51,698 nucleotides of DNA, taken from NCBI GenBank assembly GCA_964367095.1, contig CAYIXE010000002.1, forward strand, positions 1 through 51,698, in the 5' to 3' direction. Each line of letters begins with the position of its first letter. Position 1 is the stretch's first letter. Below, piece by piece: positions 1-50,202 of the stretch. Both the position numbers and the translations under genes were made by a program. The notes under the pieces were generated by a model, which worked only from the letters and a program-made list of their open reading frames with translations, was not told the origin of the DNA and did not search any database. Origin of the DNA: an uncultured Gammaproteobacteria bacterium. Lineage in GTDB: Bacteria; Patescibacteriota; Microgenomatia; UBA10105; UBA927.

Positions 1-3000
1 CCCGTCAACCCTTGCGAAAGTGACACCCCTCCGCCACACTCTTTTTGAAGCGCTTCCAACTCCGCCTTTTTCTGTATTTCTGCGCCTTGAGGAATCTCTA
101 CGCCAAATATTGCACGCATGATTCGCCCTGCAAATGCACGAGTCTTTATAAGCGCACCCTCAAAAGATATTTGGTTTTGCGTTGCATTCTCCCTTGTCCT
201 AATCTGATCAAAACCAAAGCGACTATTTGATTCAGAAAGCCCAAATGGCCCATTGAGAATAGAATTTTGTTGATCTATGTTTTTTCCCCAATTTCCAAAA
301 ACTTCATCAGTCGTAAGATGGAAATATCCTATGATTTGCGAAGCATCATATCCTCGTAATTGCGCAAACGGAATAATAAGTTCAGAAAAATTTCCGTTTG
401 CGCTCATACGATACAGTGCCAATTTTCCCCCTTCTGTATCCCAATCAAATAGCTTTGCTTCTTTGAGTGTCTGTAATATAAATATCAACCCTTGAGCTCC
501 TTTCCAATAAAATATTTCCTCAAATTTCTTCGTTGACAATCCAACCTTATCAGCAATCAAATACTGCAAAGTAGTAACCACGAGCTCTTGAGATTCGTCA
601 TGATTGACACGTGCAGTTCTATTTCCTATAAGAAATATGTGTAATTTTTCATGAAGCATTTCGACAGCCGCCCATACAGGATCATCAATTATACTTTGTG
701 CGATAATAAGCCCTCCGCCTGTAGCGCTCCCCCGCGCTCCCACTGGTAATGATCGAACAATCGTTATGTCGTTTACTGGATCTGAAGGATAATCAATCGC
801 ATACTGATATCCAGGCAACAACTGATACATCAATGATGCAAGTGTAGAAACAAATTGAGCGGGCAGACCACTTTTCTGCACCTCTTTTGAAATAATCGCA
901 CCTATGACTCGTTTTTTTTCTGCAACAGTGCCAAATGGGAAATTAAATTGTACTTGAGATGAAACGAAATCCGGTATAGTCGTGAATTGATCACGTTCCA
1001 CGACAGCTTGTTCTCTATTAAATGCATCACTTGCGGCAATCGCGCTTTCTTCATGAACAGGCATATAATCTCCAAGATCAGCGCCTTTTTGAAAAGATTC
1101 CCAAATATCTTTTTGTTTGGTATCCAATGCTAATATGTCTCTCACTACGTGGCGCGCTATCCGTTTTCGTTCATAAATGCTCAAGTTTTCGTATACGTTA
1201 AGCTCGTTCATTATTTGATCCTGAAGTGACGCATCAATCTGAATGAAACTCCCTTCAGCTCGTTGAATTCGATCTATCAATATCTTTGTAGATTTGGGTA
1301 TTTCATCGCGTATTGCTAATCGAACTTGCTGTCCAACCCACTGTTTCCTCACCCCTTGCCATAATTCACCCATCCTCTCCCAAAACTGCATCTGGATCGG
1401 TTCGGCAAAATGCGGTATCCCCTGATCTCCCCACCATTTTTTCACTTTACCCGCCGTAACCTTGGCGAAGGCTTGGGCTCTTGTCGTTTTCTCCATCCAC
1501 AAAAGTGCCCACGGATATCGATCAAGATTTAGATTTTTAATTACTCTCCCAAATGCGGTACAGCCAGAAGTTGCTCCTAAAACATCTCCGTCTTGAGAAA
1601 AATCAGCAGCATACACGCGTGGTATACTAAAAAGTGGTGTGGGCCTACTCAAGTGAGGCGACCAGTCTGTCAAACCGGTGCGCGGGGGTGCAATTCCCCC
1701 TAGGTCCACACTACTACCCACACTACTACGTACTATATTGACATCTATAGCATTAGATGCTATATTTGCTGTTGACAGACTGGTTGCAACCTCATTTGAG
1801 GGTAGCACCGTCAAAGAACTTCCGAAAGGAAGTTTTTTGTTGGAATTTTGCTGCGAAAGTGACACCCCTCCCCCGCACTCTTTTTGAAGCGCTTCCAACT
1901 CCGCCTTTTTCTGTATTTCTTTCTCATTCATCGTCGTAGGTGCGCCAAATATCGCGCGCATGACCGAATCGACAAATGCACGAATTGGAATTGATTGAGA
2001 TTTTGTCTGTATTAAAGATTCTGGAGAAAGGGTTTTTTGTATGCGTTCTTTGAGGATTTTTTCCACCACCGAAGAAATGAGGTCAACGGACTCTTGGTCG
2101 TTTAACTGCGGTCCCGCACGGTTGGATTCGGCCATGCGTTTATATGCATCCTCAACAATTGGCGCCAACGCTGCCCGCAGCTCATCCACAGAAAGTGTCG
2201 GGTTGAGACGCACGTATGCTGGATTGTTGCGCACGGCTTTCGTAATTTGCTGGGTTAATTGTTGCAGTTCGGATCTCCCGCCTACAGAAAGTTTTAACGC
2301 TGGCAACTCTCCATCTGATTCATATTCAAGCGAGTCGGAATGCACATCCAAATAATTCACGCGAACCTCCATATTTTTTTGAAGCTCAAACGCTCCTGTA
2401 ACTCTTTTCCATTTCCCTTCCGGCGTCAAAATTTCTATGAGGTCAGTGCCGTGACGCATGGTGAGTCCGGAAAATTCAACCGTCATGCCGGGGGTTACGG
2501 TAATTTTGTCCGTTCCCTGGTATATTCCCTCATCACCAAACATGGCGCTGCTTCTGGCAAATTCTTTAAATACTTTCCATCCTCCAAACACATCGACTAC
2601 CTCATTTACATCTCCAAGGATTGCCTGTTCCCAAAGTTGTTTTCCTTTTTCGGGCCCCACTCGTCTGATCAGCTCAGGGTAAAACACATCCTGCATTAAC
2701 CGAGCCGCATCCGCATAATCAGAAGATGCTGTTTGCGATAGTGCATCTTCAAAACTCATGTTCCCGTACCTTACCATTGCTTCTGTATGAGCAAGCGTCG
2801 TAAAGCCTTCTACTACATTAGTAGCTAGACGAGGAGTAAAAATCGGAGGGAAACCCAATCCTATATTATGAACACTGTCACGCCGAACTAAATGCCAGTA
2901 TTCATGAATGGCTATAGCAAGAGCGAGGGTAGACTGTTCTTTTGATTGAAGTATCTCTGCAGCCATCCAGTTCGCTCGTGCTTGACCTAAAGACCGCCCC

Positions 3001-12000: not shown

Positions 12001-15000
12001 ACTACATCGGCTCGCGCATACTCTTCAAGTGTCAATTTTTCTTCCGATGGATGCACGCCTATACCGTGATAGACAATCCCTGACCCCTCTTTATAAAACA
12101 TCTTGTGACTCTCAAGTGTTTCGGAAAAAAGTTTAAGGAATTTTTCCTTATTTTCTATCGATACATCACCACTGACAAAGATTGCATACTTATCTCCTGT
12201 TTCCCGAATAAATCCAAACGATTCATTGGTATCGCCAAACTTTGTGCGGGTTTCTTCAAACGCTTGCACGATTTCCTTTAAAAGATGGTCACCCAATAAT
12301 TTCTGCGTCGCTTCATCAGAAAGTACATGATTTGCTCCAAATAAATTTTTAATGTCGTACACTTTGGCAATCGTTTTCCCTAATTTCGCTAAAAGGGGCC
12401 ATGCCACTGAGCTCCACACCTGCTGAGGGGCGTTGCCCGAAGCATTTACCGATGCCAACCACTCTGGTGTTACCTTTAATCGCTCAGACTCCGGAAACAT
12501 TTCGAGTGTAAGAGGTGTCAATGACTTCTGATGCAAATCATCATAAAAGTAATCGGTAAATTCAGAGAGCACTTCTGGATTTGTTGAAAGCATTGTGTGA
12601 AGTTGTTGAGCAAGAATAATGTCATTTGGCTTACCGATAAACGACAAAAACGACTGGAGAATTGTGGTCTCTATCGCTTCGCGTTGCTTTACGCGGAGAG
12701 TATCGTTTTCAGATTTTGGTGGAAACCTGCCTGTTTCTTCTTGTATAGGTGGTGGCGGTGGCGTCAAAAAGCTGGGGAAGAATCTGCCAATGATAGTTCG
12801 GATTGGCTTCGCCCAACCAGTGTTTACAGGCAAAATGGCGTTGAGGAATCGAACCGTCCGTATTTTTAGGCTATCACCCACAACGATCAGCTTTAGCAAA
12901 GAAGGCATTTCAGATTCAAATCTACGAGGGGTATCTGTTCCATCATTACCTACAATCGTAATTACTTGTGATATTATTTTTGATCGTTCCACTTCTTCTA
13001 GATCTATAAACCGAATAATTTCCACAAACTCACGTATTCCTTCTTGCAAATTACCACTTCCCAACGTCACTAGTAAGGATTCCACATCGCCATTTATCGC
13101 ATGAAACAATATTTTTCTTGCTTCACTTGACCCACGTATATCCCCAAGATTTTTTTCCAATGCCTCAGAAACCTTGTTATATGTAGGATAGCTACCCTCT
13201 GATGTTACGTGTGCTTCCCAACCCTGTGTTCGTGCAAACTCACGTTGACCATATATGGACAGCGCTTCCGCCAACACATGAGCAATTTGTTTTGTTATTA
13301 TCCCTTGATCAGTAATATATTTAATAGGTTTATGAGTGTTTATGTGGACGAACTCATGAAACAATGCATCAAATATCCTGTTAGGATCAACCCGATATAT
13401 CCTACTAAGAAAACTTTCAGATAGGAAAATTTTTCTATACGCATCCATATAAACTAAAACCGTCAAATCACCAGGATACGCCTGAATTTGTTCTTGTTCT
13501 AATCGACCCATACCCATCGCCGTGACCCTTTCGTTAAACGCACTCAAAACTCGAGTAAGTTGTCTATCTGTCGATTCATCCATATACCCTATGGAGAATA
13601 TATATTCAAAAAAATTCATATGTTCATTATTTGCTCGCACCATCTCCGAGACTCTAGATAAATAAAATAAATAGAGACGGCTCATTAGTCTTAGAGTGAT
13701 AGTACTCCAATAATTCTGCATACTTTGCTTAATACTCTTTCGAGGAGTAGATTGAGATACTTGAGGCTCGATAACTTCTCGAATACGCGCCAGTAATTCA
13801 GTAAGATCTTTTTGCAACGTGTCAAGTTCTGCCTTAGCTACTCTAGTCTGTGCTTCATATCCTTTGGTAATTTCTGCAAGGGCTGCGTCAATTGCAGCCA
13901 CTGCTTCTTTCCATTGTTGTTTTGTACCGACCAATATTCCCTCAGCCGTTTCCACATTTGCATCTTCTGTTTTAACAACGATCCTGTTTTCTGCATTTTT
14001 ATGCTGGGCAACAAGTGTCTTTGCATTCTGTAGCGCTGTTACATCCCCTTTCAATGCATTCTCAATCAACGCTCTCAATGATTGAGCAAATATAAGACAA
14101 TTTGTGCAGCCGCCTAGAGGAGTAACTACTGCAGCAGCATTTTCTGTGGAGTCCATTACTTGCTGTATACCTGTTCGGATTAGAGACAGAGATCCCGATG
14201 GCGCAATATTTAATCCAAATCGGGTAAAAAATGGTGCCGCCCAGTTCAAAAATGGACTCTGGAGGATCGTTTCCAATGCGGGCATCCCAGCGCGGACAAC
14301 GTCAGAAACATTCGTTTGTTGTCTATAATTATTTTGAATCATCCTCTCAATTCGTGTCAGTTCTCCCCACGTAAAACTCATAAACTCTCCGATAACACTT
14401 GGTGGGTTTGCAGGGATATCGCCTAATCCCCGCTGGAATATCGGCGTAGACTCAACTTCGCCGCGAATTTTTTGCACTTGTCTAAATCGGAAATCCCAAT
14501 TAGAGCCAAAAAGGCGTAATCTTTGGATAATGGCTCGTGCTGATTTTCGCGCTGGCGTCAGATTGTTTTCTAAAATTTGTGTCCGTCGTTGGCCAAAGAA
14601 TGCTTCATCCAATAGAACCCCATACATCTGGAAGCGAAATCCGAGTAACCCGAGTGGGGAAAATAAACTCCCTACAATAGGGGCGACAGTACTTTGCGTC
14701 AATGTTCGGAATTCAGGTTTCATCTGTACTGTTCCTGCCACCTGTTCAACAAAAGTAAATTGCATAGGATCGCTACCCTTAGCGACATAATCGATAAACG
14801 CATACCGCAGCGGAGTCTCATGTTTAAGATATTCCGGTGCCCAAACATACAGCGCGATGCTATCAGCTAAGTCTTCACTGGAGGCCCGACGAAGCGCTTC
14901 TTCATTTGCTCCATATCCTTTGTAATAATCATTTGCATACGCAGTCGGCGGCAATTCATGTAGTATTGACGGGTCATAAGAAATAGTAGCCCCGTTAACT

Positions 15001-18000
15001 TCAGAAAACCCCCGATAGAATATATTTTCATACGCAGACGCAAGCGGACTATCACTAAAGCTTCCGTCAGGATTTTTCTGATACCGCATCAGGTGAATAA
15101 ATTCATGGGTCAATGAGGCCGCAGGAGATATATCTGATCTTCCCGTTTCGGATAAAAGCGTATACAGATGAGACTTCGGCGTCTTATATGCAGTGGTAAA
15201 TTGAAGACTTGCCAACCAGGATTTTTCGCTGTTTATGAGATCATTCCCGGCTATTGCGTAGTAAGACTCGCCTCCAGGAATACTTCCCTGCTCAACTTTC
15301 GTAAGTCGAGTTTCATCGGCCTGCATAAATCGATAAAATGGCGCTAGGCCGGTAAGAGCTCTTTGGATATCGCCAAGCTCGTCACTTGTCAAAGCCAAAC
15401 TTTGTTGTGAAAATCGAACGTCTATGGACTGTCCTCCCGTGTTATTGAAAACAAGATTTGGTATCGCAGTCGGTTCGATTCGATTTGTTATCGTATCTAG
15501 TGAAAAAGATGCAAGATATGCTTGTGTTTCTGAGGAAGGCTTGGCAGTGGACAGATTCCCCTGCAAATTTAGTGCCGATGATATCCAACCACTTTGAGTC
15601 AGTTCTATTATCCAACTTTCAACCAATTTATCCTCACCGGATTGATTTGGATGAACCACATCTATTAAATCAGATGGCTTTATGACTCCATGAAGATCTT
15701 TAGTAACTATTACCGGAGATTGTGTCGTAGATATTTGCCCTGCCAAGTCCTCGTACAATCTGTTTAATTCAACTACTTTTGCATCATAGGTAGCATCTGT
15801 TGACGGCAGCACAGAGGATAACACGATTTTTACATTCGGATTTTTTGATCGAAGTATTCCTATGATTGCCTGTATATTTTTAATCGTTACTTTTTCCAAA
15901 TCAAAATCAGACACTATATCATTCACTCCTAATTCTAAAATCACAAGATCGGGTATATTTTGGTCTATGGTTATTTCACTTATGACTCCATTCCAACTCC
16001 ATTGGCCGGCAAGCAAATCATTGAGCATTTTTTGCGTCGTATAGCCCCCATGTCCTTCCGTAGGCACAGCAGCTGTGTCCCGCGATCTTTGGCCGCCGAC
16101 AAACTCTGGTTGTAAACCGAGCTTAGTCAGCTCATCAAAAAACTTCGATCCAACCGATCCACGAGATGTTATAGAATCGCCAAGAATCATAACCTTTGGT
16201 GTAGTAGAGAGTGTCGAAGCTTGGGCTGGTATCGCTTTTGAATCCGCCGCTAGCTGATCATCTCTTCTCGAAACGCTCTCAATATTTTCTGAACTAGGAG
16301 GTATTTTTGACAATTGAGTATCCAGACTTAATGACTCAAATGCCGGAATCGTAACATTTGCATATACGCGATCTGAAATGATAACCCTAACCGGTGTATA
16401 GTAATCAATGCTTTTTGCTACATCAATCGGATCATACGTCCATTCTCCCTGTAAAAATACACCAGATTGGTACCCTGGAAGAGCCACATGGCTACCAACT
16501 GGTACAAGAATTCTATTATCCCAACTGTCGTCATAATCTGCTGGAGCAAACGATACATGATGCACACTTGAGGATAATCCGATTGGAAATTGCAGTACAC
16601 CATTAGCATATTCGAGGCGAGCAGAGTTAAATAACACATCATTACGAGCAATCAATTCAAACAAAAGCCCTTGATCTAACTCACCATTTGGGCCAATCCA
16701 TGGAGTGTCAGTCATGAAACTATCACCCTGCTGCAATTGACTTATCGTATCCTGCAATAACCGGAGCACTGGATGAAAATTGCCTTCAGTCAAAACCCTT
16801 CCTCCCATATCAAAAGCAATCTGTCCAAGCACCTGAGCTAATCGTGCCTCTCTCCCATATGCAGTTCCTCCCAACCAACCCTCACCAGTTCGAAGCCTCA
16901 CATACCAAAATACTCCTTCTCCATTAAGGTTATATGTTTTCCCTTTAACAAAGGCTTGCCTTAATCCTGTTGGCAATCCAGTTTTTTTATCATATCCAGT
17001 TGCGTATGATGTTGTTGCGATGGATGTAATATTCATACCATCAGGAAAAAGTGCGTCTATAAAACTTATAAATCCACTAAACCCGCCCATGGAGACTGAA
17101 TCTATCGGCCTACCGGTAAGCCATTCGACTCGTAGTCGCGTATTTTTTAAAGGGCTACGTGGATCATCCATATCTACTCCAGGAAGCGCACGTTGCTCAT
17201 CTATTGTTGTAGTTTTTGGATCATCTGGGATATTTGTCATCGATGAAGTATTAAAATAATGACCGTCGGCCATGATTAAGCTACGGTACAAGTTTGTAAC
17301 CGTAATTTCTCCCGTTTGAGTATTGAGGTAGACTACTATATTTTGGTCATTTCGAGATTCATTAAATGGAGCTACTCTACCTTTTAAGTCCTTCTGGGTG
17401 GACTTTTCGTTTTCACCAGCTGAATCTTCTCCGATAATCAGAGAGGCAACAACAGGATTATTGTAAACCGCATCTTTTTCTTCTTGCGTGGGATTTTCTT
17501 TACCTAAAATTCGTAACCAAAAGGGGCTTCCTTCTTCTTGAGCAAGTTGAGCTCTATGTGTCCGTGCGTATTCATATATCGGCTTAGAAAAAAATACGAC
17601 GAGTGGATTTTTTGTTTGTTTTGCTGCTTCCCAATCAGCCAGTACTTTTTCTTGATACATTTCTGCTGGTATTTTTTGAGGCGCTTCACCTACATTCTGA
17701 CTAGGATTGTCATATCCAAAAGGAGGAAGTGTTTCAATCGAGTTCGTTTGCTGTGAAATAATCGGGGGCGGATTAATAACTACTTGAGTGCTTGGTCTCG
17801 CAAACAGAATAGTTGAATACAAGGACACAACTCCAACCAATGAAACTACTCCTGATATTATTGCCCCATTTACAGCAGTTCGCATAAGTCGATTTTGTTG
17901 ATAAGTACGAGCGAATCCCTGCCCAACAAATTTGATTTGCCTATTAAACCGACGCACAAGTGATAATGAATCTAAAGCCTGATCATATTTCAAACGATAT

Positions 18001-21000
18001 TCAGCATTTGAAAGCACAATGTAGGCTTCTTGAAGTTGTTTTAATTCCCTGCGTACAAGAGCACGTTGTCGCCTTTCATAAGCCCACTGCCCAAATTTAC
18101 CAAATCTCTCTATAATCCTTCGACGTTGAAATTGTTGAACCTTTTTTTCATATGCTGCTTGTATTGCTTCTTTTGTAGCCTTGCGATTACGAATGCCAAG
18201 AATAGCATAATAATCCATGAATGCCTTCTCAGCTTTAACATTAGGAGACTCAACTATAATAGGCGTTATAATATTTCCGGTTTGAATTGGAGGCTCTTCA
18301 ATGGCAATTATCGGATCATATATCGGTTCCTGTATGTCAGAAAGAAATACTGCAAGAAGAGCAAACGGTCGTGTAAAATCATCTAAGGCTTTCGAGTTTG
18401 TTTTGATCTGATCTATTAAAGTTTTAAGTGTGGGTTCTTTCCTGAGGATGTCCAAAAATGTATTATGGAGCGAAGCACTCGTTAGAAAATCTGATCCAAC
18501 GATCTCATCGGGACCCCACGTAGTTTTTTCTAACGCCTCAATTGCAAGCTGGATTTGAGATATAAAAGTGGGCCATTGATTAACCTGCAATTTATTTAAT
18601 CCATTATATAACACAGGGATAAACAACATAAAATCATCATCTGTTGCCCCTCGGCTAAGTATGAACCCTTGTAACGATACTAAATTCTGCAAAGCTTTCT
18701 CGTTCTTTGACAGTTCTAGAAATAGTTTTTCGTTATCTTTCGTTTCCTCTACTCCTATTAATAAGTCTAAAATATGTTTTATCTCTGGCGTTGTTGCCTG
18801 ATCAAACTCTTGCTTCGCCCGTGCTTCTATAGCAACACGTAAATCATCCCATAAACCTACTTGCGTCTCGCTCCAAGATTCTGACTGCTTTTTCACATCG
18901 TCAAAGGCGGTCAACCGAGCAATTTGTCCGGCAACCAGTTCTTCAGTGGTTTCATTTATGGCTGGTGCAGTCACAAATTGAAACGCCTCACGTGCTATCG
19001 GAATAAGGTCTGCGATGAGACGTTTTTGCGTGTATCCGGAGTCTCCAAGCGCAAGTACGGCGTTTGAAATCTGATGTGCATCTAATATTCCCCGTATCAG
19101 AATACTCAGCTGATTATCTGATGTGTTTTTGTCGGTAACTGCAAGCATTACGTCACGGGAAGTAAGAAGCTCTGCCTCCACAATGGCCATTTCTTTACGC
19201 AGCCGTTCGGGTAAATTACTAAGCACGAATAATAGATTTACTCGTCTATTATGTGAATCATTGCGATCTTCTACGCTCGGCGTTCCCCCGCCTATATCGC
19301 TTCCCCCGCTTGGACCGCCATCACCATCCGTCCCCCCATCATCCGCTCCCAAATCAACAATTTTATATGTAGCTACTCTATCCAAAAATCGACTCAACGT
19401 TTGAACAGTAACAAGTGGTTTTAAAGCAGTGGGAAAATCCTCTCCTCCTTTGACCATCGCATTTCCCACCAAATCAAGAAGCAATTCTTTATACCACTGC
19501 GTCGAATACCGCTCGGTAGTTTCTTGTGTCAACCCAAACGCTTTCAAAATAATGTACCTATCTTCTTTATTGATAGATTCAAATTCTTTCGAATTTATAA
19601 TCGTTTGAATACGTTGCCGCTCTTCTTTTGTCGTTTGCTCAAACGACTTATTTGATAGAGTAGCATTTAGTTGTTCAACAAATTTTCCAGTACGTTCATC
19701 AACTCTATTAAATTTATAGAATTGTGCCAGCTGAATAATATGGATTCGCATTCGATCTACAACTTCTTTGGCAGACGGTGGGCTTGTTCCATACGCTGCT
19801 TCAAACTCATCATCTGGTATCCCAAGCTCTCGCATCTGTCCTACGTCAATGACACGAAGACGGTTTATCGTTTCATCCCAACGGTAATTCTCCATTTTTG
19901 GATCTAAGTTCACTAAATTCGCTTGACGCAATAAATACTGATAATGTACAAACTGCATCATCGCTTGTAGAACAATATCTATTGGATTTTGTTGGACAAA
20001 GATTACATCTGTTAATTGATCGCCTGAAATAAATTCGATGAATAAAACACCAGCTTTCTCACCATAATCATATGATTCATAGACATAATGTTCATTATGC
20101 CCAACGGGGTATTCAGCTTCGTTTCCATCCTCAGCGTTATAATTTAGTGCTGCGGCACGAAATTCGCTATATGCATTTCCGTCTAGACGAACTTTTGCCG
20201 CAACGTATTGCGGCATCGGTGCATCATTTCCACTTTTTATCACCTCGACAAGATACACTTTTCCTTCCGCGCTTCCACCCAAATACCGCAAGGGCTTCAC
20301 CGTCGCTCCAATTTCTTTTGCACCACTAAATATTCGCTGTACAAACAAATCGTCTTGTGATGTAAGCGCCTTTCCCATGGACAATATGCTGTCACCAACG
20401 ACCTGTGGGTAATAAAGATAGCGCAAAATATCGTTTGCGATACCATCAAATTCATCTTTCGTAATGCCAAAATTCTTCTGTATAGTTTGATAAGAAGATT
20501 CATCAAAACTAAAATAAGGAAAAGTTACGACGGGAACAGTCAAGTAGTTGCTGACGAGAATGTTTTTTACGTATACACTATTTTTTGTACTATTTACAAA
20601 TTCTTCTTCCGTCTTTCCAGAACGATCAAGCGTTTTAAACTCATCATCAAATTCTTTTATGTATGTCATCGTTTTATCCGTTTCACTCACTACCTTCGGC
20701 AATTGGCGAATCTCTACCGCTCCAAGTTCACGGATAAATACTGGCAATCGCTTGAAAAAGTCTTGAATTTTATCTGCTGTTTGCCCAACTACTCCCTCAA
20801 AAAAAGCTTTAATCTTCTCTCCATCCTCCCCGCTCAATCTCTGTGCTAAATCCACTGGAGGCATGGTTTTAATCATCACCTCTACCACTGCTTGAATTTG
20901 TCCTTTTTGCGCCTCCGTCTTCAACCCCATGGCGTCAAAAATGAAAGTGGTGAGTTGGTCAGAAAAAGAATCCTTAGCCTGTGGTACATAGGTATCCATA

Positions 21001-24000
21001 TCCTGCTTCAATTGTTCAGGCGTAATAAAGTTTACTTTGGACGCGTCACCATTCAGGAGTATCCTCACAAAAGCTTCATGATACGTCTTCAACATCGACA
21101 CCAAATTTTCATTTATATTCTCTCGCTTCCTTTGTGCTTGAGATGCCAAATCCTTATACTTCACGTCTGTTTGTAGTTGGTTAAATAAAGACATCATTTC
21201 ATCAACAGTCTCACGAGTAACATCACTTAGTTCTGCTAATTGTTCGAATGTGTATTGTGTATTGGTCTCCAATATAAATTGCACATACTGCGCATACCAT
21301 TGTATCAATCGCATAACTGCAAACGACTCCTTAGATAGGTTAAGTTTATGCAAATCAAGGCCAATAATATGCTCTGCACGTTCCACGAATGTAAGATTTG
21401 TAAAAATTCCTTGAAACTGTTTATCATATGGATGACCAATAGATGTATCAGATAATGCAGCTGGTAAAAGGGTAAACTCTGTAGGCAAACCAGGACTAGT
21501 AGTCAAATTTGATACCAATAACTGATCTCCTGCACTATCGCCTTGGTTAATCTCTACGCCGCCCATCTTCAAAATATTTTGACTGTCGAATCGAGAAATT
21601 CTATCTTTTGTAGTAGCCAGTTTGTATATTTCTTGCAGCTCAACTGGCACAAGTGAACTATCGGCGTTATTAGCTATACCAACTGCGAGCATATCGAGTA
21701 ATAATTCTCTGTAATTTTCAACATTCGCTGCCTCCTCGATAGATATACTCGGAATTCGCCCCAACATAACAAGGACTTGATACTGAAACACCTTTGGCAG
21801 ACTTGTAAATTGCAAAGATTGAAGTAACAACGACCGACGATCTTCATTCGTTGAGAAAATCAACACGTCTCGTATCGTTGATTCTGATTTCGGATAAAAA
21901 GCACGCGCTACATATTCAAGAAATTGAGCGTTAACTGCGATTGGTTGATACGGTTCTTGACTATAAGATCCAGGGTCAACAAACCGAAGCGTATCATCAA
22001 TGGTATATATGGCATCAAATACCTTATCCTGTTCAAATAATCCATTTTGACGAAGTAAATATTCTCGATGACCATATTGATATGCTTGTCGAACTGTTAA
22101 TCCTGGAGAGCCACTCGTGTCAGATTTAGAAATTAACAACTCCTCAAAAATAACATGATTATCCTTATCTATTAAATATGGCTTTACCGTGTATCGATCA
22201 GAAGTCGTAACAGCAAATTCGCCTTTTCGCTCTGCTTCTCGTAGTGTATTTGCCATCACATATTCATTTTCGACACTCTGAATTACTGTAACAACGTTTT
22301 TAGATTTCTGAACCTTAACGGCCATGTACTCCGCAACCCCTTTATCGTTCGCATTCGTTATATGTACCAAATAAACAAACCCAAATCCTCCTTCTGATAT
22401 ATATCCTTCTACCTTTACATCCCACTCTTGTTTTTTGGCAGACGAAATAATTTCTTGCACATTTGCACTGTCACGTGTATCTTCTAACGGTTTTTTCATC
22501 GCCTCAATTGCTTTAATCCGTTCTGTTTGCAAAATTCCGTCTTCCTTGAGTTTTTCTGGATTGATAACATTTATTTCGCTTAATTCTTTTTCTTGTAGTA
22601 ACTTCCCTGCTTTTACATTAAGTATTTCTTTGGAATCGGAAAATTTCGCTTGTTCTTCTCTCAATCTACCCAACTCCAATGCTAACTGTCTTTCTGCGTC
22701 TAGTGACGTAGTAAGTTCTGCTATATTCAATCGTGCTTGTTTTGACAAAGAAGCTTCCCTAAATGAAAGATCTTCCGCGTGCCCAATCTTTGCCGATACT
22801 GATTGAAGTACTCGTTGAACACGCCTATCCCATTGTGGTTGTAAAGTATTCTCAAATGCCACCAGCGCTTCGGAAATTGCTTCTAATTGTTCCAAAGTCT
22901 TCATGCGATTGAGTGCTTTATCTTTCATCAACGCCTCCAACTCTTCAAGAAGTGCTAACGGCGTCTCACGCGTCACTGCTAATCCTGCCGTATTTAAAGC
23001 ACTTTTTAGTGTTCTGGTCGCAGTTCTTAACGTATTTGATATTGGAAAAATTGAGACGCGCGCAGCCAGAGACCGTAGTCCACGAATAATTGGAGGTATG
23101 TTTGCTGCTTGTTCTGCTATTTGTTGTCGACGGGCATCAATTTGTACTTTTCGCTTTTCTGCAGCTCTCAATTTCTTTTCTTGGTCTGCAATCTGTTGTA
23201 AACGCTCTCGCTCTTTTACATCTGTCTTCCCAACTCGTTGGAGTTCTTTAGCATCAAGGTCAGCAAAAAATGTATCAAGTTTTGCTTGTAATTCTTTATT
23301 TTCTTTTTCTATCTGTGCTAACCGTTCCGTGGCGTACGTTTGGCGTATGGCTGCAACCACTTGTATCATCCATGTAGCCCTATCTGTACCTGCATCTGTA
23401 AACTCTTCAGGAGTCAATTGCCATGTAGTAGTAAGAAGATTGAGTATTCGCTCCTCAAGTATTGCATCCGAAACTCCCTGTATCGCAAGCCCTCGAAACT
23501 GATTTTCTGACACGATTTCATTCGCCGCCAAGAAAAGATTTTCTATGGCATCTAATCTTCGCAGCATACTCATGGATCGCACAGCTCCAAGTTCAATTAT
23601 TGGATTTGCCGCGGGCACCACACCTGACAGAAATGCTTGCCTGATAGTTGCATTAAATGATCCTTTGCTATCCATTTCTTCCAACGATGGCAACAATACT
23701 TTCGGACTCGTCAATAATGGCGCTATAGGGGAGCGTGGGCCTTCAATTCCCCCACTCTGCTCGGGCAAGCCTAAAACATACTCCGCAAATGGCTTCAAAA
23801 AGGAAATCTTACCTGCACTGAGCGGAGTCGAAGTGTTATGTGCCACGATACCATTGCCGATGAAGGTATGTGTACCATCTACTTCTATATCAAACACTTG
23901 CTCTCGTTTGCCTTTTGTAATCGAGACGATTTCTTCCCACCCATCTGCAGTCGCTATCCTATCGCCCTTTTTGAGGAATTTCACTTTCTGCCAAACGGTG

Positions 24001-27000
24001 GTATACTTTTTTCTAGATAAAGGACCATGTGAACTCGCTGATCCATGTAACCACTCATGGTGAAGAAGTTCTGAAGCCAAGAACCCATTGAGGATCGAAT
24101 TGGCCAGGGTCCTTTTCTGTTGACCTAGCACGTTTGATTTGACATGCTCTTCAGCATGTGATATGGTTTCTTCAGATAAGAGCTGAGGGATAACCAGTTC
24201 CCGACGTCGACCCAACATGGATGCATTTGTATCCTGCGGCGAGAGAGACAGCTCTTTTTCTGTACTTATAACTCCACGTTTGTCTACGCTCCCTAACCAC
24301 ATACAAGACAAAAAGAATTTTTGTCCTTTACCGATTGAACACACTACAGCTCTCACACGCACAAACTCAACAACAGCAGAAAGCGTCCAATATTCTATAA
24401 CCATATCGGATTTTTTCACTTTCCTGTATCCTTGTACTATTCCCGTGTTAGCAATGACATGTGGTACTCTTGGAAGAGCAAAAAATCTGGTAATAAGTTC
24501 ATTTATAGATCGATCTTTTTCTACAAAATGATTCCATCCTGTACGAGTAAAGAATACGTTACTTTTGAGAGCTTTTGACCAAACAGATGAACCCGCCAGA
24601 TGATTCATATAATATGCGCGAGCCACATCTTCCGAGTACTCATATGTATCTTTCTGAATACTATTAACATCATGAGGTTCCATATTTAATAAATATGGGT
24701 GCTCACTCGTTGTGCGGATAGTTTTTCCTGATGTGGTCGTCAATCCATAAACCTGCTGTACACCTTTTTTGAGAAGTTTATTGACGCGAGCAGGTTCAAG
24801 CTTGTGCGTAAATTCATTAAGGGACAATATTTCGTCGCCAGGCTCGATCTGATCGATACGAACATCCTCATACTCATCCGGATCCCCTGTCCCTCCGTAG
24901 CTTTTAGCGAAGGGGGATTTTTTCTTTCGTCGTCTTCGACGAAGCTTTGTGTCCCCTGTCACGCACTCAGGAATATCTTTACTGCTTGCTTGATTCTTAT
25001 TCTGCACCCCGTTATCAAGCGCGTTGATGATACCAAAAAGGGTTACGTTTTGTCCGTTGTTGGTGATAAGGGAGATAAGTTTGGCGCGAAGTACAAGATT
25101 ATCGAGGAGAGAAGACGCATCTTTGGCATCGTCCCATCCAGAACTCGTTTTCTCCAGTGCTTCGATTGACTTTTGAGTTTCGGTCAAGGCCTGGGGAATT
25201 TGAGAAGGAGCTTTGATCCCGACCGATCCAATCACACGAAGATAAATAGTCAACAGTGCGCGGGTATTTTGGACAGTACCGGTAAATTGAGACTGCAGAG
25301 AAGATATGGCAGTAGTAAATTCAGGATCTTTTACCAATGTATCAACAGCTTCTTTCAACTCTTTACCGGATGCATACGCAGCAAACATCGGGGCTACAGA
25401 CTTTATAAATGACTCCGTCAACACCTTCTTACGATTCGCTTTTTTCATGCCTGTCAACAGGGCGTTACCAATCTTTTTTGACGCAGAAAGCAATTGATTC
25501 TTGGTAGGAGGCTTAGGAGCTGGTGCCTGCCCCGGCGTAGTCGGCCTAACATCACTGCCTTGACGAGCTGGTTTAGGTCTACTCACATCAGGAACATGTC
25601 CAACAGTCTTAATCGTTTCTAATGTACGTTGTAATGTATCAAATGGTATCAAAGCATTTCGAACTACGTTATTTTTCCCCATCTCTTCATCAAGAGCGCG
25701 CCTGACCCATGTAGCAATACGATAAACATATAAATCATCACTCCACTCTTCTTGAGGCGCGTCGCTAGGATTAAATTCTCTCACTATATCTCCACGTAAT
25801 CTCAATAAATTTTCGATATGCAAGAAACGTTGGTCATCGGCTTCACGTAATACTTCGTTATATCTTTGGAGTGGTTCTATTATCTGTTTTTGTGATGCAC
25901 TGCTAAAGGCTTGCCTTAATGATGATGTCTGTCCAAAAATACTAAAAATATTTGCCGTATCCCATTTACCTTCATTTAAAACTATATTTAGAAGGTGTAA
26001 CGTATATTTTTCATAACCCGATACAAAAGCGGTTGTCCTAGCTTGGCCTATCGCAATATCTTCTACAGCACTCCCTTTCAGTCCATACGTCTTTCCCGCC
26101 TTTTCAATAGCACTCTTCACTCCAGGTGTTAGCTGTGTATACAACTCTCGGGATAAAGACTCAGGATTATTTACATAGTTTCTTAACGTAGAAAGCGCTT
26201 GAAACGTCGTCCGGCCATTATCGTACAAATATTTACTTCCTGCCCGCTCGTTTGCTGTCTGTACTGCAGTAACAGCATTAATCGCATCGGAAAGTGTCAG
26301 CAATTGATAACTATTAAATGAATTTGCCACTCCTTGAAGGTTACTTAGGGCATCGTTCACGACGTGTTCATCAACGTCATGTACTGAGTTTCTGCTGTTT
26401 AAGACAGGACGAAGCAAATCATATACGATCTGATTGCGCTTCCGAAGGACATCGGTTGAAAGGATCGCTTGCAAATCTGCCCCAAGCGTATCGCTAGCAC
26501 TTTCCAGCGCGAGTATTTGAGCTTGTACTGATGACACCCGAATATTATGAGATTTTTCTGTGTCGAGTACTTTTCCATTATTTGTCAATAATTCATACGA
26601 GATATCTATACTATCCCGACCAATTGCCTCTTTCAACACTTTATGAGCCTTTTCAACTTGAGCGCCATATCCATTCTTCTCAATACTTTTTTGCAGGCTC
26701 TCTATATCTCTAACGAAGTCGATAAGATTACTCTCTCGACTATGTACCTTATTCACTTCTTTTTTCATTCCCTCTGTCCTCGTCGCAATACGGGAAAGCC
26801 ATGTGTCAATCAGCGCTTTTGTCACAGGAGCATCTTTTTCTCCAGGCTCAAGCAATCCAAGATCAGATACTTGTTTCACTGCGTTAGTCAATAACTCTTT
26901 TTCTTCCAACTCATTTATCCGAGCCATGAGTGCAGCATGAGCTTTTTGAAGACTTATTACCGTGTTAACCAAGCGAATAGGAACCGTTTGGGTAAACGCC

Positions 27001-30000
27001 GCGTCCTTAAGCAAAGTCAGCACAGCACCCAGCGATTTTTGAACTTTCCCAAGAGTATCAGGCGTTTGATCTTCTAGGGCCGCTTGTCGCTCCCCTTCTT
27101 GAGCTACCTCGACAAGATATGAAACGATGCCGCTGCCAATAGAAACAAAATTATTTCTGTCTATTCCCTTCGTAATCTTATTCAATACTCCCTGTCCAAA
27201 ATCTTTGGCCGGCGCTAAAGCGATAATTTGACGAAACGCCTCGTTGGCCAAAACAATTTTTCGCGCATTATGACTAAAAGTCATCGCCTCTGCCAGTTCA
27301 GTTCTCATTTCGATAGCTTCTTTGTCAGTAAGCGTAATACCCAAATCCGAAAGACTTTCTTCAAGATCATCCATCGTAAGCATGGTACTTCCCTCTGCAC
27401 GAATTTCCCGACTCGCCGTTTCCATTGCGATACGTAGTTCTTGATCAATCGCTAACCCACGAAGCCTTTCCACCTCGTTATCTACTTCTGTCTGTGAAAA
27501 TTTCGAAGAAAGTGGTGTTAGAACAATTGGCAAATTATGAGTACTGATTCTTTCAGAAAGCTTGTCATACACACTTCGGTCGACGGGCAGTGTTTGTGAA
27601 GACTCCGCATTCTTTAACAACGCCAAATCCTTTTTTGCATTCGCTTTTGTTTGAGCTCCTGACTCAATATATGATCCATCGATAAATTTATTGAGAACAA
27701 CATCTCTTAGATGTATTGCGTTCGTAAAATTCGGACTCAGAATATCTAACCGAACAACATTGTGTCCATCTGTATATATCGCTCCGTAATCTTGAAGCAT
27801 ATTACCAAGTCTGATGCCAATACTAAACGACGGTTGCGTTGTATCCACTGCCATTCTTTGCAATTTTTCCTCTAAATGCGCTAAATCAGTAACTAAATCT
27901 GAAGTCGTACTCTGAAGGGTGATTGGGTAGTTCTCTGGGTATCCACCCGATTTAAGATCAGAAACAAACTTGGTAATTTTATTTTGTATCGATTCATTAG
28001 AACCTTTCTCTTGCCCTTGCCCAGCTGTTTCTTTTTCCAACCCATCAATATATCTTTGCGCTTCGATAATGTGCTCGTCATATATTTCTTCAAGTGTTGG
28101 GATACGCTCACGGCTAAGAGTATCAACGGCCCTGCGCTTCAAGCGTTCTACAAACCTAAACAAAGGATTTTCTGATAACGTTTCTGTCTTCTTCAATTCT
28201 TCAACTAGTGTGTTCAGTTCAGTCTGTGGATCCTCTGAAATCTTCATTGTCATAATCGCATCAAAATCCGACAGATACATGGTGTCTAAGAATGTACCTA
28301 CAGCCTCGAGAACAGTTTTATTTTTCTCTGAATCCTTAGCCGCCTTTACTATTTCATCTGCAAGTTTGAGTCGATTCTCATTTGAAGCATTGCTGTATAT
28401 TTTCGCCTCAGAAGGTTGATTGAGTATCCGCATAAGCGCCGCCAATTTCTGATTGGCAAAGTAGGCGGCGGTGCTAAAGAGCATTTCATTGCCAGGCTCT
28501 CCACTTTTCTTATGCTTTTCCCGCTCTGCGTTTACAATCTTTATAACACCCTCATATTTACTCTTGGCGTCATCATACTGCCCCGCTGCTAATAAACTTC
28601 CCGCTTCTGTAAATAATTGGACAAAAATTTCCTTCAATTCTTCACAGCTACCACATGCGAGCGGTTGGAGCTCTGCTCCCCTGTCTACTGCCTTCTCAAG
28701 ACCCTTTATTCCTTCTGTAAGCCCTCGCGCAAATTTATCAATGTCCTTTTTTTGATTAGCAGTAAGTGCTTCACCGCCTATTGGTGCGCTTGCTTTTTCT
28801 TCTATCTCTTCTACAGTCGCATCAAAATATGAAGAATCGTCAAATGTAACACGAAGCATAGACGCACCATCTCGCTTTTCAGGGGATACTGAAGCTACTC
28901 CAATTTTTAAAGAAATATCCCCATCCACTCCAAGCATTACTTCTACTCTAGAAACATCATGGTCTAATGAAGAATCTCTGTAGATATAGAATACATTTGT
29001 CAATGGAATCTCTTTCCCATCACCCACATTGATTTTACGTATACTGGCCGCACCACCGGTATCTAAAACAATTTTAGGAATTTCAATCTTTGATGAAGCG
29101 GTATCTATGCCTGTTTGTACCAATTTATTGAGCCCTGAAGAGTTAGAAAGGTATTTTTTGTTTAACGAAATATTTAATTGCCTTAACGCATCTACGTTAT
29201 CAGTAGTCAGAACAATGCTTTTTTCCGCTCTATATTGGAGCTCGTTCAACACCAACTCTAACTCTTGTTTTTTCGTGATTGCCAGCTCATCCGGACGCCT
29301 AGCCTTAGTATCTCCAAATCCATCGATGAGTCGTAATGTCCCTTCGGGTGTCAATATAATGTTTATTGAACGCAGGTCGCCATGAACAGAACCAGTTATT
29401 TTCCAATGATTTATAACATCCCTGACAAATTGGTTCACCTGTGCCAAGGTAAGTATTTTATTCGTTGCATCGAACATCCGAGTCCCCTCCACAAACTCAG
29501 CGACAAAACCAATAGTCTGACCATCTTTAGTAACATCGCTGTAATAGCGAGTAATATTTAATCCACTACTATAGTTTTCCTCTGTCCCGTATGTCCGATA
29601 ATATTGAAGCTGCGTTTGATTCGAGGAATCCTGAGGATTCTCAAATATCTTTACTGCATATATTTTTCCTGAGAATCCTTTTTCCACAAGAATAAAAGCG
29701 GACTCACCAGATAAAATTTTATCTCCAGTAATCTGGATAACATCTCCATTATTTAAAATGATCTTCGCGGGAACTATATATCCATTTGACAGCGTTACTG
29801 TTAAGTCCTCCGTCTGCCCAAATGCACTGAATAAGGAGGTACCACTATAAGGATATGTATCGGCTCCAGTTCCTTCAATTTCGACTAACTCCTCTAATGG
29901 CAACACTTCTTCAGATTGATCAAAGCTCTCCCACTCTGGCTCTGGAGGAATATCTTCCTGTATCGTAATCTTTGGAGATAGGAGTTCTTTTATTTGCAGT

Positions 30001-33000
30001 TGTATCAAATTGATACTCTCTGATAACTTCTCAAGATCTGCCCACGAGGCTACCTGGGCACTTTGCGCTTGAATCTCAGCTACTGTGGCCTTAAATACTA
30101 CTACATTTGGAATGGTCTTATAATCCAACGAAAGCATAGACTTGGTCACTGTTTTCCACTGCATATCCGCTATCTGCCGCAATAACATTATTTCCTGCTG
30201 GTGTAGTCTGTCTAATTCTTCTGCATTCTTTTCGCGCGCCGCTTGTGCATCTTCTAAATCAAGCCCCGCAATCATACTGGCCCTCTGTGCCTCTTTAATT
30301 TGCTTCAATAATTGCGTATCAGTATTTTTTGCCTCAGCGTATAATCGCTCCGCTTCAGAAAACGCACTAGTTAATGCTTTTATTTTCGCAGCATTTTCTT
30401 GACTCTCATCCTTACTAAGAGCAATCTGATTTTGAGAGATTTTTTTCAGCGCGTCATTCACGCGTCCAATCAAAACTGTAATATCAAGCTGCATCTGTAC
30501 AGGCAGTACAGCATTAGATATATCTGGTAATTTATCTATCTTGAGTTTTTTTGCTTGCCCTATAAGACTCTTTAACTGTGATTGACTACGGAATTGTACG
30601 AAATAGTCATCAAGTGTTGCATCTATAAGTATTTTCTCTGTATTTTCACCTACCGTGGCCTGAAGAAGCGTTTTATATTTTAAGACAATACCTTTGGCCT
30701 CCTCATCCGTCCAGTTATTCTTTAAAACCAAAGAGGACAGCTGTAGATATGCGCTGTCATACAAATCCTTCCTATTATTATCCCGAGCCATCATAAGTCT
30801 AAGATTTGCTGATTGGTAATATAAACTATAGATTCCAAATTGTTTCTCTGATAAAGTGCTACTAATTAATTTCCCTATCTCAAAGATACTCCGGCCTGCA
30901 CCCTGAATCTCCTCAATCGAATAGGATGCTTTTTGGGCAATCTCCTGTAATTTCCCGATGGCAACCGTAAACGCATCAGCATTCGCATTTACGTCCTCTC
31001 CTCTTACAAGAGAAATACCGTCGGAATCAAGACTTACTGTAATCGTCGCATCGCCCAACTGTAGCGTATCTCCTTTATGGAGTTCTGTAGCGTCTGTCAC
31101 ATCCTTGGTATTAACTTTCGTTAAAGAACCAGTATAGGGCTCATAGAACCACCTGTTATTGACCTGATGAATCGTCCCATGCGCATTCTTAATTGCCTGA
31201 TCTATGCCTATATTTGGAAGAAAAATATTTACAAATTCACCTGATCCAATAATAAATTTTTTCGGCCCTTCTGAAGTTATTGCCGCATCGATGGTATTTA
31301 TTCTTACCGTTTGATTGGGTTTGAGTGTCCCTCCGCCTCGCACATCCTCTATGATAATTCCCAGATCGTCGCCTCTATTTGTCTCAAACGCTTTACTTAT
31401 TCGATTCATCATCACCGTAGGAACTTCAAACTGTGTACCCAACACCCATCGCAATAATCCTATTGCTTTTCTGGATTCTATTTTCCCAGAAACAGGATTT
31501 CGCACTGAAACATATTGACCTTTTACAGCAATATCAAACTCACGTGTTTTATTGTTTCCATCGGCAGGCTTTACTAATTCCCACCCAACCAAAGACTGCA
31601 AATGATCACTCCCTGATAAAATCACAAAATCGCGCCCAGGAGACAAATGAAAGCTCGCATATTGCGCTCTCGCTTGTTGCGAGCTAAACATATCTTGAAC
31701 TTGTGGACTTTTTGCAGTCTGAAATGTGTAGCCAGTGGCGATGCCCTCATAGACGTCATTTCTGTTTATGTCTACTATTTTTGAAGCTACATAGGCTTTT
31801 GAAACGCTTCTATCAACCACTAATATTACGCTATCAGCAATTGTGGCAGTGTGCAGCATATTTTCTGTCGTATCTAATACATAAATTCCTGCGGTACTTG
31901 AACCATTGAACCCTGTTGAATCCCCTGTAATAGCGAGTATGTCTTCATTTGCACGGTCAATCGCATTTTGCATTGCTTCTCTAATATTTGAATCATCTGT
32001 TTCTAAACTTTCTGACAGATACTTACCGACTAATTGCGTGACCATGTCCGCCACATACTTGCTGTTTTCTCCGCCTTGAGTCACACCATCTGAAGTCACT
32101 CCTACCACCAACCTCTTGCCAGTATTAGTAACGATCTCAGCGCGATACGGCTTACCATCTTGGTATGAATGAGGACTACGCCTTTGATTAGCAAACTCTG
32201 CTATACCAGCAAGATTAGACCTTATACGCTGCGGCAATAATCCAAGCAACGAATCAGTCGCTTTCCCGAGATTAGCAATAGCTTTTTGTAATAATTGAAA
32301 CTTAAGAAACGAAGCATTCAGTCGATTTCTGTCCGCTGTTTGATCTGTTGAAGGTGCAAAAGAGGTGATCTTATCTTTCTTCGCTTTTGCCTTTGCATCC
32401 TGCAATGCTTTTTTCGACGCATACTCTTCAACGTCAAGGGTAAATTGATTTCGCAAAAATGTTGTATTTTCTTGGGACGTAATTTTTGTTTTCTCTTGTA
32501 ATAACTTCACCGCATTATCAATATCCTCAGGATGAATATCCTTAGAAGAATTAATATAATTTTTCATCGCCAGCGAATACTTTTCATACAATTCTGCCTG
32601 AGTTTTCAATTGTGCTTCGGTATACTCTGCTAACGCTACCACAGCTTGTGGTGCGCTCAGCGCTCTCACTTTTTCACTTTCTGCTAATGCAAGCGCTTTT
32701 TTAGCCGTCTCTACTTGAATCCAAAGATCATCTTTTTTCACTAAATGATCTGCATATTGTTTTCTTAATGGATCTATCTTCGCTGATTTGCTTTTATAAT
32801 CTTCTTCTAGCCTCTTAAGCTCTTTAGTAATTCTGTCTTCAGAAATAGTCTTAGCTCTAAGAGCGTTTTTAATTTCGTTTGCTTTTTGCGTAGCTTCTTC
32901 TAACGTGAGCTGAGCCTCTACGGGAATAGGCTTAACCTTTTCCGCTGGCTGACTATTTGGATTCATCGTGGTGAGAAATATCGATCCAAACCCAACCTGA

Positions 33001-49455: not shown

Positions 49456-49526
49456 GGGCCTATAGGTAAGTGGTATACCGCTATCTTCGCATGATAGAGT
49501 CGCCAATTCGATTCTGGCTAGGTCCA
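49456..49526 (+). tRNA. tRNA-Ala (anticodon CGC), no encoded CCA
   Basis: Hand-folded cloverleaf. The acceptor GGGCCTA/TAGGTCC has G3-U70. The D stem is ggta/tacc with a GG loop. The anticodon stem is ctatc/gatag with loop ttCGCat. The T arm is gccaa-ttcgatt-ctggc with an A53-C61 mismatch. The discriminator is A. Confidence 0.75.
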
Positions 49527-49579
49527 CAAGAAAGAAAACAAATAGGACTTATAAGTCTTATAAGACGAATTAGTCAAAT

Positions 49580-50152: not shown

Positions 50153-50202
50153 CACGTCGCTATGGCATAGCGAAATAGGGGGTCCGATTCCCCCCAGGTC
50201 CA
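50132..50202 (+). tRNA. tRNA-Ala (anticodon GGC), no encoded CCA; 5' 21 nt overlap the end of the preceding ORF
   Basis: The acceptor GGGCCTG/CAGGTCC has G3-U70. The D loop is accGGta. The anticodon stem is tcgct/agcga with loop atGGCat. The T arm is ggggg-tccgatt-ccccc, with C at position 55 instead of U. Confidence 0.65.

Follow-up and report, generated by a model that had tools for sequence, protein, structure and literature searches.

The 51,698-nucleotide stretch of DNA analysed here (contig CAYIXE010000002.1, positions 1 to 51,698; hereafter the window) carries on its minus strand a giant gene, the product of which includes a long chain of putative enzyme modules. On balance, we favour reading this product as a giant, membrane-anchored and probably largely extracytoplasmic protein with a distal enzyme chain strung on two types of connector, these being at once module boundaries and tracts of recombination. 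The connectors delimit modules and recur in related large proteins beside different modules. An earlier note on this DNA, made from its letters alone, had described enzyme modules separated by a recurring linker; the role of the connectors as recombination tracts is new relative to what that note proposed.

The minus-strand frame runs from window position 48710 to position 3 (16,236 codons without a stop) and continues past the left window edge. Positions in the protein are given below as a codon index counted from 48710 (window coordinate = 48710 - 3(index - 1)), and all features of the protein lie on the minus strand. The gene call, taken from ENA contig Hain_H52_01um_R3_167 (61,452 bp; Hainich groundwater, well H52, 0.1 um filter fraction), to which the window belongs, places a GTG start at 48515, giving a gene at 3..48515 within the window and a full product of 17,894 amino acids, about 1,720 of which lie past the left edge. 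Over 18.7 kb the gene is matched in the same order, with 99.84% identity and 24 indels, by L007, a long-read contig of 363,784 bp obtained independently from the same site; it can therefore be taken as real, as opposed to a chimera of assembly. Read on this second contig, the region past the left edge contains a third YPWALLWM-type element, a further module, a cluster of transmembrane (TM) helices and then more modules. Comparison of the protein with itself (chunked BLAST) showed it to be almost without internal repeats except for the connectors.

The first connector type is a cationic amphipathic tryptophan (Trp) helix followed by a disordered, acidic, proline-rich tail with a PLxTP-like motif (consensus 'WWQ(R/L)A(W/I)..(V/I)(K/R)..(W/L)F', then '(I/V/A)PL.T(P/Q)' 10-25 residues on), and is present in five copies. 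Copy a (10875..10979) reads 'PWWQRAWNTVKKWFVGP' then 'EEKKIPLATP', copy b (9966..10070) 'SWWQLFADQGKRAQAFVKTSAVKAWERVKSLF' then 'LKAPLLTQ' and copy c (8841..8972) 'RWWQRAIDSIRSLFNRM..EEKKVPLPTP'; copy d (7053..7184) shares with copy c a 119-nucleotide stretch of 100% identity, and a fifth Trp helix (1323..1391, 'FWERMGELWQGVRKQWVGQ') had been missed by the earlier note. The recurring motif is present beyond chance: the tripeptide WWQ occurs four times in 16,236 residues, where composition predicts 0.11, with all four within index 12579-13845. The Trp helices are strongly amphipathic and cationic, with a hydrophobic moment that ranks, among all 18-residue windows of the protein, at the 94th-100th percentile and a net charge of +2 to +3. 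In an AlphaFold model, copy c forms a helix (predicted local distance difference test score, pLDDT, of ~70) followed by a disordered tail.

All seven motifs listed in the earlier note were located in the minus-strand frame where it had placed them: PWWQRAW at codon index 12578 (about 10959-10979), SWWQLF at 10053-10070, WWQRA at 8952-8966 and 7164-7178, YPWALLWMQKS at 4980-5012, YPWALLWME at 1491-1517 and NWQSFRQAF at 37905-37931. The last of these had been offered as an early copy of the linker. A hidden Markov model (HMM) of the linker helix, built from nine seeds, misses NWQSFRQAF; it finds five copies, at index 12579, 12901, 13249, 13845 and 15779, all between 12579 and 15794, with none in the first 12,500 residues and with shuffled sequences never scoring above 0 bits. 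Because four of the nine seeds are themselves found copies, and the copy at 13845 is identical to the seed at 13249, the recovery of copies and the shuffle control are partly circular and the useful result is the absence of further copies. Since the HMM finds none in the first 12,500 residues, NWQSFRQAF was rejected as a connector copy.

The second connector type is a cassette of 200-310 amino acids in which two helices ending in an invariant cysteine (LA) are followed by a disordered spacer, the signal-peptidase-like motif VYA|AD, a second invariant cysteine and an element that we term LB ('FGRVIKNxNLxRYPWALLWMQK'). The LA helices, which end 'ALQKEC' and had escaped the earlier note, are found as 'RAFAGRIMRAIFG..EIQKKAELEALQKEC' at window 5679-5822, 1851-1991 and 12-149; their pattern ('RAF.G..MRAIFG....EIQKKAELEALQKEC') pairs with each YPWALLWM element across a polar spacer of 105-210 residues that is unconserved, variable in length and, in a low-confidence model, predicted to be without secondary structure. 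Cassette 1 (4890..5822) consists of LA1 (5679-5822, ending 'ALQREC'), a spacer (5109-5678) and LB1 (4890-5108, 'AYAAN..SGCTSFGRVIKNVNLNPYPWALLWMQKS'), and cassette 2 (1461..1991) of LA2 (1851-1991), a spacer (1656-1850) and LB2 (1461-1655, 'SIPRVYAAD..SGCTAFGRVIKNLNLDRYPWALLWME'). LA3 (12..149) starts cassette 3, the remainder of which lies past the window. Each LA opens with a Trp-helix-like string ('SSWQYAQVFVRAF' here, 'EEAWNRVQIRSFFG' in the related protein P0031, described below), and the two connector types are therefore related; both motif classes share the strings 'RAQAF.K..A.K' and 'AWN.V...F.G'.

Cysteine is scarce in the last 5,900 residues of the protein: of 11 in all, the invariant ones of LA and LB account for five. 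Between the two cysteines lies '[VA]YA[AQ][DN]', which the giant protein has at no other place. Its relatives have the motif in LB cassettes, behind TM clusters and where the signal peptide of P0031 ends, and nowhere else; at this last site 'LSIPKVYAQDPIQC' ('SIPKVYAQD') may be compared with the internal 'FSIPRVYAADFSQ' ('SIPRVYAAD'). The spacer of cassette 2 also overlaps a 68-nucleotide tRNA-like element in antisense orientation (window 1641-1708, plus strand), which scores 29.4 bits against an Rfam gathering threshold of 29 and has 63% GC in a gene of 42% GC; its acceptor, anticodon and T arms are good and its D arm is defective. ARAGORN did not call the element, and neither of the relatives L011 and L009, introduced below, has it.

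Given these properties, the Trp helices might be membrane-surface anchors that hold each module on a bilayer, either the cell's own or that of a host. Their high moment, their positive charge and the position of Trp at the helix start fit such a role, as do the several TM clusters of the protein, but LB-type elements are weakly amphipathic (LB2 lies at the 41st percentile) and an amphipathic helix may equally pack on a neighbouring domain, and we regard anchoring as rather unlikely.

Connectors of one type or the other are present at about 7 of 11 module boundaries. None was found between the LCP, SGNH, first HExxH, second HExxH and GGDEF-like segments (coordinates below), and the earlier statement that each boundary carries the motif is thus too broad. 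Nor is the array the C-terminal third of the protein: it spans about 61-90% of the 17,894 residues, with ~1,720 residues lying further on, and the SGNH domain (15621-16193) starts outside the range of 1-15560 first assigned to it. The view that the linker belongs to no known family has held up. Our Pfam scans covered index 1-16236, and connector-centred pieces searched at E-values up to 10 gave chance-level matches only, so that no Pfam family matches the connectors.

What connectors do at the DNA level is indicated by comparison of their copies and, most strongly, by a co-occurring related genome. The 119-nucleotide identity between copies c and d has sharp edges and unrelated flanks, and the LA copies are 93-97% identical in nucleotides. 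A related genome that co-occurs with L007 is represented by contigs L010 and L011. From LA3 downstream, at least 4.9 kb of L011 matches L007 at 99-100% identity; the HExxH module before LA3, together with cassette 2, matches at 55-80%, and upstream of window position 2092 or so similarity ends. The switch in identity falls inside LA3, at the start of 'EIQKKAELEALQKEC' (~window 85, the recombination breakpoint). LA3 of L011 has the 'APTTMNEK' variant seen in LA2 of the present protein, and the LB at position 2 of L011 is 90.6% identical to LB1 here as against 77.6% to the collinear LB2. The switch within LA3, the homogenised copies and the closer match of the L011 LB to LB1 therefore point to homologous recombination and gene conversion at the connectors. 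At the level of sequence, these comparisons show that the connectors behave as tracts of gene conversion and recombination at which strains swap blocks of modules.

Similar connectors are present in other large proteins. P0031 (4,454 amino acids, Logan SRR22388055) has a GGDEF-like pair (25-28% identity), unrelated sequence, an LA-spacer-LB cassette (39-60% identity) and, after LB, a mobile segment found also in the giant protein (segment X, below), a TM cluster, a Cys-rich part and a terminal HExxH. It comes from a different sample type; the invariant cysteines, VYAAD and YPGALLWMQK are kept, whilst the spacer and the flanking modules differ. In P0006, a fragment that comes from well H43 at Hainich, 'NQWWQGLWNRITG' stands ahead of a kinase and a TM region is followed by 'SWWGNIRSTVVDWWNSVRERFTG..PVILPTP', and P0015 (2,605 amino acids) has SGNH, Fic-like and HExxH modules with 'STWENTKSWFGGF'. 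The presence of connectors beside different modules in P0006, P0015 and P0031 makes them a feature of the family. Scans of GTDB genomes and of JGI metagenomes and two scans of viral contigs gave no connector relatives, the GTDB scan returning only an uninformative match of 24% identity to the kinase region in a metagenome-assembled genome of the Pseudomonadales. A 2,001-residue homologue query returned a self fragment only and missed a 57%-identical relative found later.

These relatives also bear on a different explanation, in which the connectors are the residue of young segmental duplications in a fast-evolving gene and have no function of their own. The perfect identity of copies c and d would be expected of such duplicates, the connectors are few and confined to one stretch of the protein, and none was found in the JGI, GTDB or viral collections. 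Purifying selection leaves no clear trace in the 66-codon repeat, where 10 codon changes are nonsynonymous and 6 are synonymous. What makes this explanation quite improbable is that the elements of P0031, diverged as they are in nucleotides, keep the invariant cysteines, VYAAD and YPGALLWMQK amid different spacers and flanks, and that Trp helices with a PLxTP-like tail ('PVILPTP') stand beside other modules in P0006, from another well.

A further possibility concerns the origin of the type 2 cassettes alone. They may be fusion scars, in which LA is the old C-terminal tail of a secreted protein, the spacer translated former intergenic DNA and LB the end of the next protein's leader; the giant gene would then have grown through fusion of neighbouring genes. 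In favour of this, P0031 has an N-terminal signal peptide whose last residues match the motif ahead of LB, the spacers differ in length and show no conservation, and the marginal antisense tRNA-like element lies in spacer 2. In addition, at locus L009 (Logan SRR22388055, 1-19365) the counterpart of the giant gene is two genes, encoding 9,531 and 4,454 amino acids (the latter being P0031), with three inserted genes (AbiEii, Fic-MerR and AAA_14/DUF4143) between them and ParE/PhD-like genes downstream. This arrangement suggests either an insertion that divided a giant gene or the state before a fusion. Against this, the hydrophobic core of a leader is missing in the internal copies, the tRNA-like match is right at the gathering score and has neither an ARAGORN call nor a counterpart in relatives, and one fusion at most, followed by duplication, is needed for a cassette whose repeats all have the same ends, LA and LB. 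We consider both parts of this proposal doubtful, the cassettes as scars no less than growth of the gene by fusion.

The segments between the connectors behave as independent folded domains, as the earlier note's proposal required. One of them is the Fic-fold module (7689..8711), which lies between the third and fourth Trp helices. A search with index 12480-13679 found ~30 homologues of this segment, mostly stand-alone proteins of 350-580 amino acids, which keep 'H.K.D.NGR..ED'; the family profile aligns the HxxxDGNGR loop to FICD, and Pfam Fic is reached by 3 of 29 family members. The motif in the giant protein, 'HIKPDGNGRSSED', retains the His, Asp, Asn, Gly and Arg of HxFx(D/E)GNGRxxR but not the Phe or the last Arg. 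The AlphaFold core has a pLDDT of 85-97 and is flanked by low-confidence connectors, and in a Foldseek search of the PDB the best eight matches were all Fic proteins, with weak scores (best E 7e-3, probability 0.96). Two connectors likewise enclose the whole of the kinase-like segment, and two the whole of the ParB/Srx-like segment.

Among the modules named in the earlier note, SGNH (E 2e-16) and kinase/APH (E 1e-5 to 3e-7) are the only two with Pfam support. The SGNH/GDSL hydrolase module (15621..16193) matches Lipase_GDSL_2 at E 2.1e-16 (61.4 bits against a cut-off of 32.9) and has all of the defining blocks I, III and V (GDSIT, GVND and DVVHP). In the protein-kinase-like module (10098..10757; 'ISHGDWKLDN', 'VTDFGGG') the catalytic loop 'HGDWKLDN' and the 'DFG' are present, with no clear glycine-rich loop; it scores 25.8 bits for Pfam APH (cut-off 23.2) and 30.7 bits for Pkinase (cut-off 31.7; E 2.7e-7), and matches a PHROG serine-threonine kinase (E 4e-5) and CaMK structures (E 0.002). 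PHROGs and NCBIfam added kinase matches only. The SGNH, kinase-like and Fic-like identities are accordingly supported. The ParB/Srx-like module (9369..9878, 'GGLHRLVAAKASGVGLMPVRVI') has no Pfam match and is 36% identical to the C-terminus of a relative, P0029; a two-sequence profile matches SbnI structures (E 0.005) over the DGxHR core, and the assignment may be called moderately supported.

Other identities in the earlier list stand at motif level. The double GGDEF-like segment (11073..12722) has the degenerate motifs 'RETGDKYAIFV' and 'HKSANDFAILLP' ('TGDKY', 'SANDF'); it gave no Pfam match and nothing useful in a PDB profile search, and is 25-28% identical to residues 91-603 of P0031, whose precomputed GGDEF match is faint, and 58% identical over 53 amino acids to another relative, P0028. 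The methyltransferase-like module (5871..7013) shows a candidate motif I only ('VITIFDPGAGVGNFG', 'FDPGAGVGNFG') and no profile or PDB match. Strict regular expressions for GGDEF, Fic, ParB and methyltransferase motifs found none in the protein, the degenerate forms being seen only after homologues were aligned. Four segments contain HExxH and are candidate zincin metallopeptidases by that motif: module 1 (14511..15413; HEFIH at 15093-15107), module 2 (13011..13613; HEFVH at 13344-13358), a long segment that probably comprises several domains (2001..4883; HEYWH at 2892-2906) and the last module in the window (171..1313; HEKLH at 639-653), which is 48-77% identical to its counterpart in L011. 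Segment X ('VLIERIPD..ENRP.LKEQIEK'; ~85 amino acids, 9006..9263) recurs past the window (65% identity; L007 about 20040-20300) and in P0031 (44%); it is common to two otherwise unrelated modules, directly preceding a connector in one case and preceding a TM cluster in the others.

At the protein level, the connectors might act as flexible tethers, and the type 2 cassettes could be protease-accessible nicking loops clasped by a disulfide between LA and LB. Cleavage by signal peptidase, or by HExxH modules of the chain itself, could then separate the modules, which would come free in a reducing setting such as that of a host cell. Such proteolytic release is plausible. A stronger version holds that the connectors are mainly processing sites, in the manner of MARTX or polyvalent proteins, the chain being cut by HExxH modules or signal peptidase. 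The array contains at least four HExxH modules, the disordered tails have a conserved PLxTP-like motif, VYA|AD, identical to a signal-peptide end, lies between two invariant cysteines, and there are precedents (PMC6315884; PMC5512222). We nonetheless see this version as a possibility of the less likely kind: none of the HExxH modules has an established peptidase fold, the Pfam scans turned up no cysteine protease domain, and processing alone leaves the nucleotide-level homogenisation and the strain breakpoints unexplained. More speculative still, and quite unlikely in our estimation, is the idea that the polyprotein of an ultra-small bacterium is a reconfigurable enzyme cocktail, clipped at VYA|AD in disulfide-clasped loops, released in the host cell and reshuffled through its connectors; if true, it would represent AB-toxin activation in a new, serial form with diversification built in.

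Returning to connectors as boundaries and recombination tracts of a membrane-anchored protein, its cellular location can be judged from the parts upstream of the array. Of the protein's 61 cysteines, 45 lie within the first 1,800 residues (window about 43300-48500), where they are paired, 3-19 residues apart, in Pro- and Thr-rich repeats such as 'KEKCD..YEKCL'; such repeats are typical of extracellular disulfide-bonded units, which these may be. Ahead of the array, a Kyte-Doolittle scan located a TM-like hydrophobic segment (17799..17876, index 10279-10304), followed by a LytR_cpsA_psr (LCP) domain (16815..17354; Pfam E 2.6e-5, 24.9 bits against a cut-off of 24.6). LCP domains are normally extracytoplasmic cell-wall enzymes. 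Because of the 45 paired cysteines and the LCP and SGNH domains directly after a TM segment, the distal array probably sits outside the cell. The order of a lone hydrophobic segment, LCP and SGNH may itself be noted, TM plus LCP being the usual layout of an extracytoplasmic LCP enzyme.

Several observations weigh against the reading that we favour. Signal peptidase normally needs a membrane-embedded segment beside its cleavage site, and the internal VYA|AD copies have no such adjoining segment. The HExxH segments have no family or PDB match and no recognisable peptidase fold, and a homologue search with HExxH module 1 found none. The kinase, Fic, ParB and GGDEF-like domains require nucleotide cofactors, which speaks for either delivery into another cell or a cytoplasmic location. 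An AlphaFold model from LA2 to LA3, built on six sequences, has a mean pLDDT of 39 and is unusable for judging the proximity of the LA and LB cysteines, as it is for the fold of the last HExxH module, which it also covers. The upstream boundary of homology with L011 lies ~35-50 residues before LA2, outside the LA2 core. Finally, the connector family is very narrow, being confined to Hainich samples and one SRA run, and recent duplication can therefore explain part of the similarity.

Other parts of the protein are of a different character. TM-like helices are clustered at window about 35030-36930 (index 3926-4559) and, past the left edge, at L007:18973-21597; the second of these clusters is preceded by a module with 28% identity (E 4e-7) to index 4229-4371. 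Midway along the protein (window about 29300-33270, index 5149-6468) is a Ser/Thr signalling set that comprises two FHA domains (E 2e-21), a PP2C domain (E 1e-4, under the cut-off) and a second protein kinase domain (E 3e-8). Between this set and the array lies a canonical intein (window 23835-24965, index 7916-8292; Pfam Intein_splicing E 1.3e-17) with the hallmarks 'E|CVTGDTKL' at its start, the block 'TTSEHPYL' and 'GIVAHN|T' at its end; PT-HINT matches weakly (E 1e-3), and at the position where a homing endonuclease would be expected there is a sub-threshold match to LPD3 (24.5 against 27 bits).

Upstream of the gene, the flank contains two tRNA-Ala genes (window 49456-49527 and 50132-50203, plus strand; anticodons CGC and GGC), a 190-amino-acid open reading frame of the 23S-IVP family (the four-helix family of 23S rRNA intervening sequences) between them, a LysM-M23 peptidase and the end of rho. 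With rho, tRNA-Ala and LysM-M23 genes as neighbours, the locus is therefore a cellular chromosome. Patescibacteria make up 54-79% of reads in the Hainich filter fractions concerned (0.1 um, well H52; PMC8672522), and an origin in the Patescibacteria (candidate phyla radiation) is a reasonable prior from the composition of the sample, and no more than that.

The giant protein can be set beside several known systems. In MARTX toxins, inter-domain regions are processing sites and the effector repertoire varies between strains by recombination (PMC6315884), and the present protein resembles them as one very large polypeptide with an array of unrelated effector domains that is strain-variable through recombination. 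It differs in having no HemolysinCabind, RTX or glycine-rich repeats and no Peptidase_C80 by Pfam, no type I secretion genes in the upstream flank seen here, an N-terminal membrane anchor with internal TM clusters, long conserved connectors instead of short Leu-containing loops, and about four times the size. Membership of the MARTX family was rejected on the lack of RTX repeats and of a cysteine protease domain activated by inositol hexakisphosphate.

The polyvalent proteins of phages and conjugative elements likewise combine many unrelated enzymatic domains, including ParB-like, methylase and zincin-like ones, and a peptidase has been proposed to cut their chains into functional units (Iyer et al. 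2017, PMC5512222). One weak LPD3 match is present here, but it is inside the intein, far upstream of the array. The present gene has a chromosomal flank without phage head or type IV secretion system genes (about 3 kb, on one side) and no relatives on viral contigs, and its product has a membrane anchor, Cys-rich extracellular-type repeats and about ten times the typical length; Pfam scans found no MPTase-PolyVal, helicase or ArdC match in the giant protein. With neither mobile-element context nor signature domains, membership of this class was also rejected.

In polymorphic toxins such as CdiA (VENN) and Rhs, a conserved junction marks cassettes exchanged by recombination, and HINT and metallopeptidase domains are releasing peptidases (Zhang et al. 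2012, PMC3482391). A conserved junction at which variable enzymatic cassettes recombine is the feature shared with the present protein, which has, in the part covered, many serial internal junctions and modules in place of a single variable C-terminal tip, no RHS or filamentous haemagglutinin repeats, and a HINT domain with full intein hallmarks. No immunity genes or orphan cassettes were seen on the upstream side covered, the downstream DNA lying outside the data.

AB toxins such as diphtheria toxin and the clostridial neurotoxins have two cysteines flanking an exposed protease-site loop, and their chains stay linked until the disulfide is reduced. The invariant cysteines around VYA|AD suggest a similar arrangement around a candidate protease-site loop here, with loops of 100-210 residues as against 10-30 and at least three repeats in one chain. 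Very long membrane-associated proteins presumed to act on other cells are also encoded by giant genes of ultra-small or predatory uncultured bacteria, among them Omnitrophota (bioRxiv 10.1101/2023.11.21.568195) and Vampirococcus (PMC8080830). The protein described here is, in contrast, almost non-repetitive and built from signalling and modifying enzymes, and a search through the text of the Omnitrophota preprint gave no mention of inteins, linkers or a polyvalent architecture.

By analogy with these systems, the protein is best described as multi-effector-toxin-like, with two connector elements of no described family. It offers a concrete picture of how a giant, almost non-repetitive protein may be built and diversified via a small set of connectors, with two co-occurring genomes caught exchanging blocks at them. 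If it belongs to an epibiont of the Patescibacteria type, a gene of 53.7 kb would represent several percent of the genome and could be one of the cell's main tools for acting on its host. The connectors, having no Pfam family, provide search handles with which more such proteins might be found.

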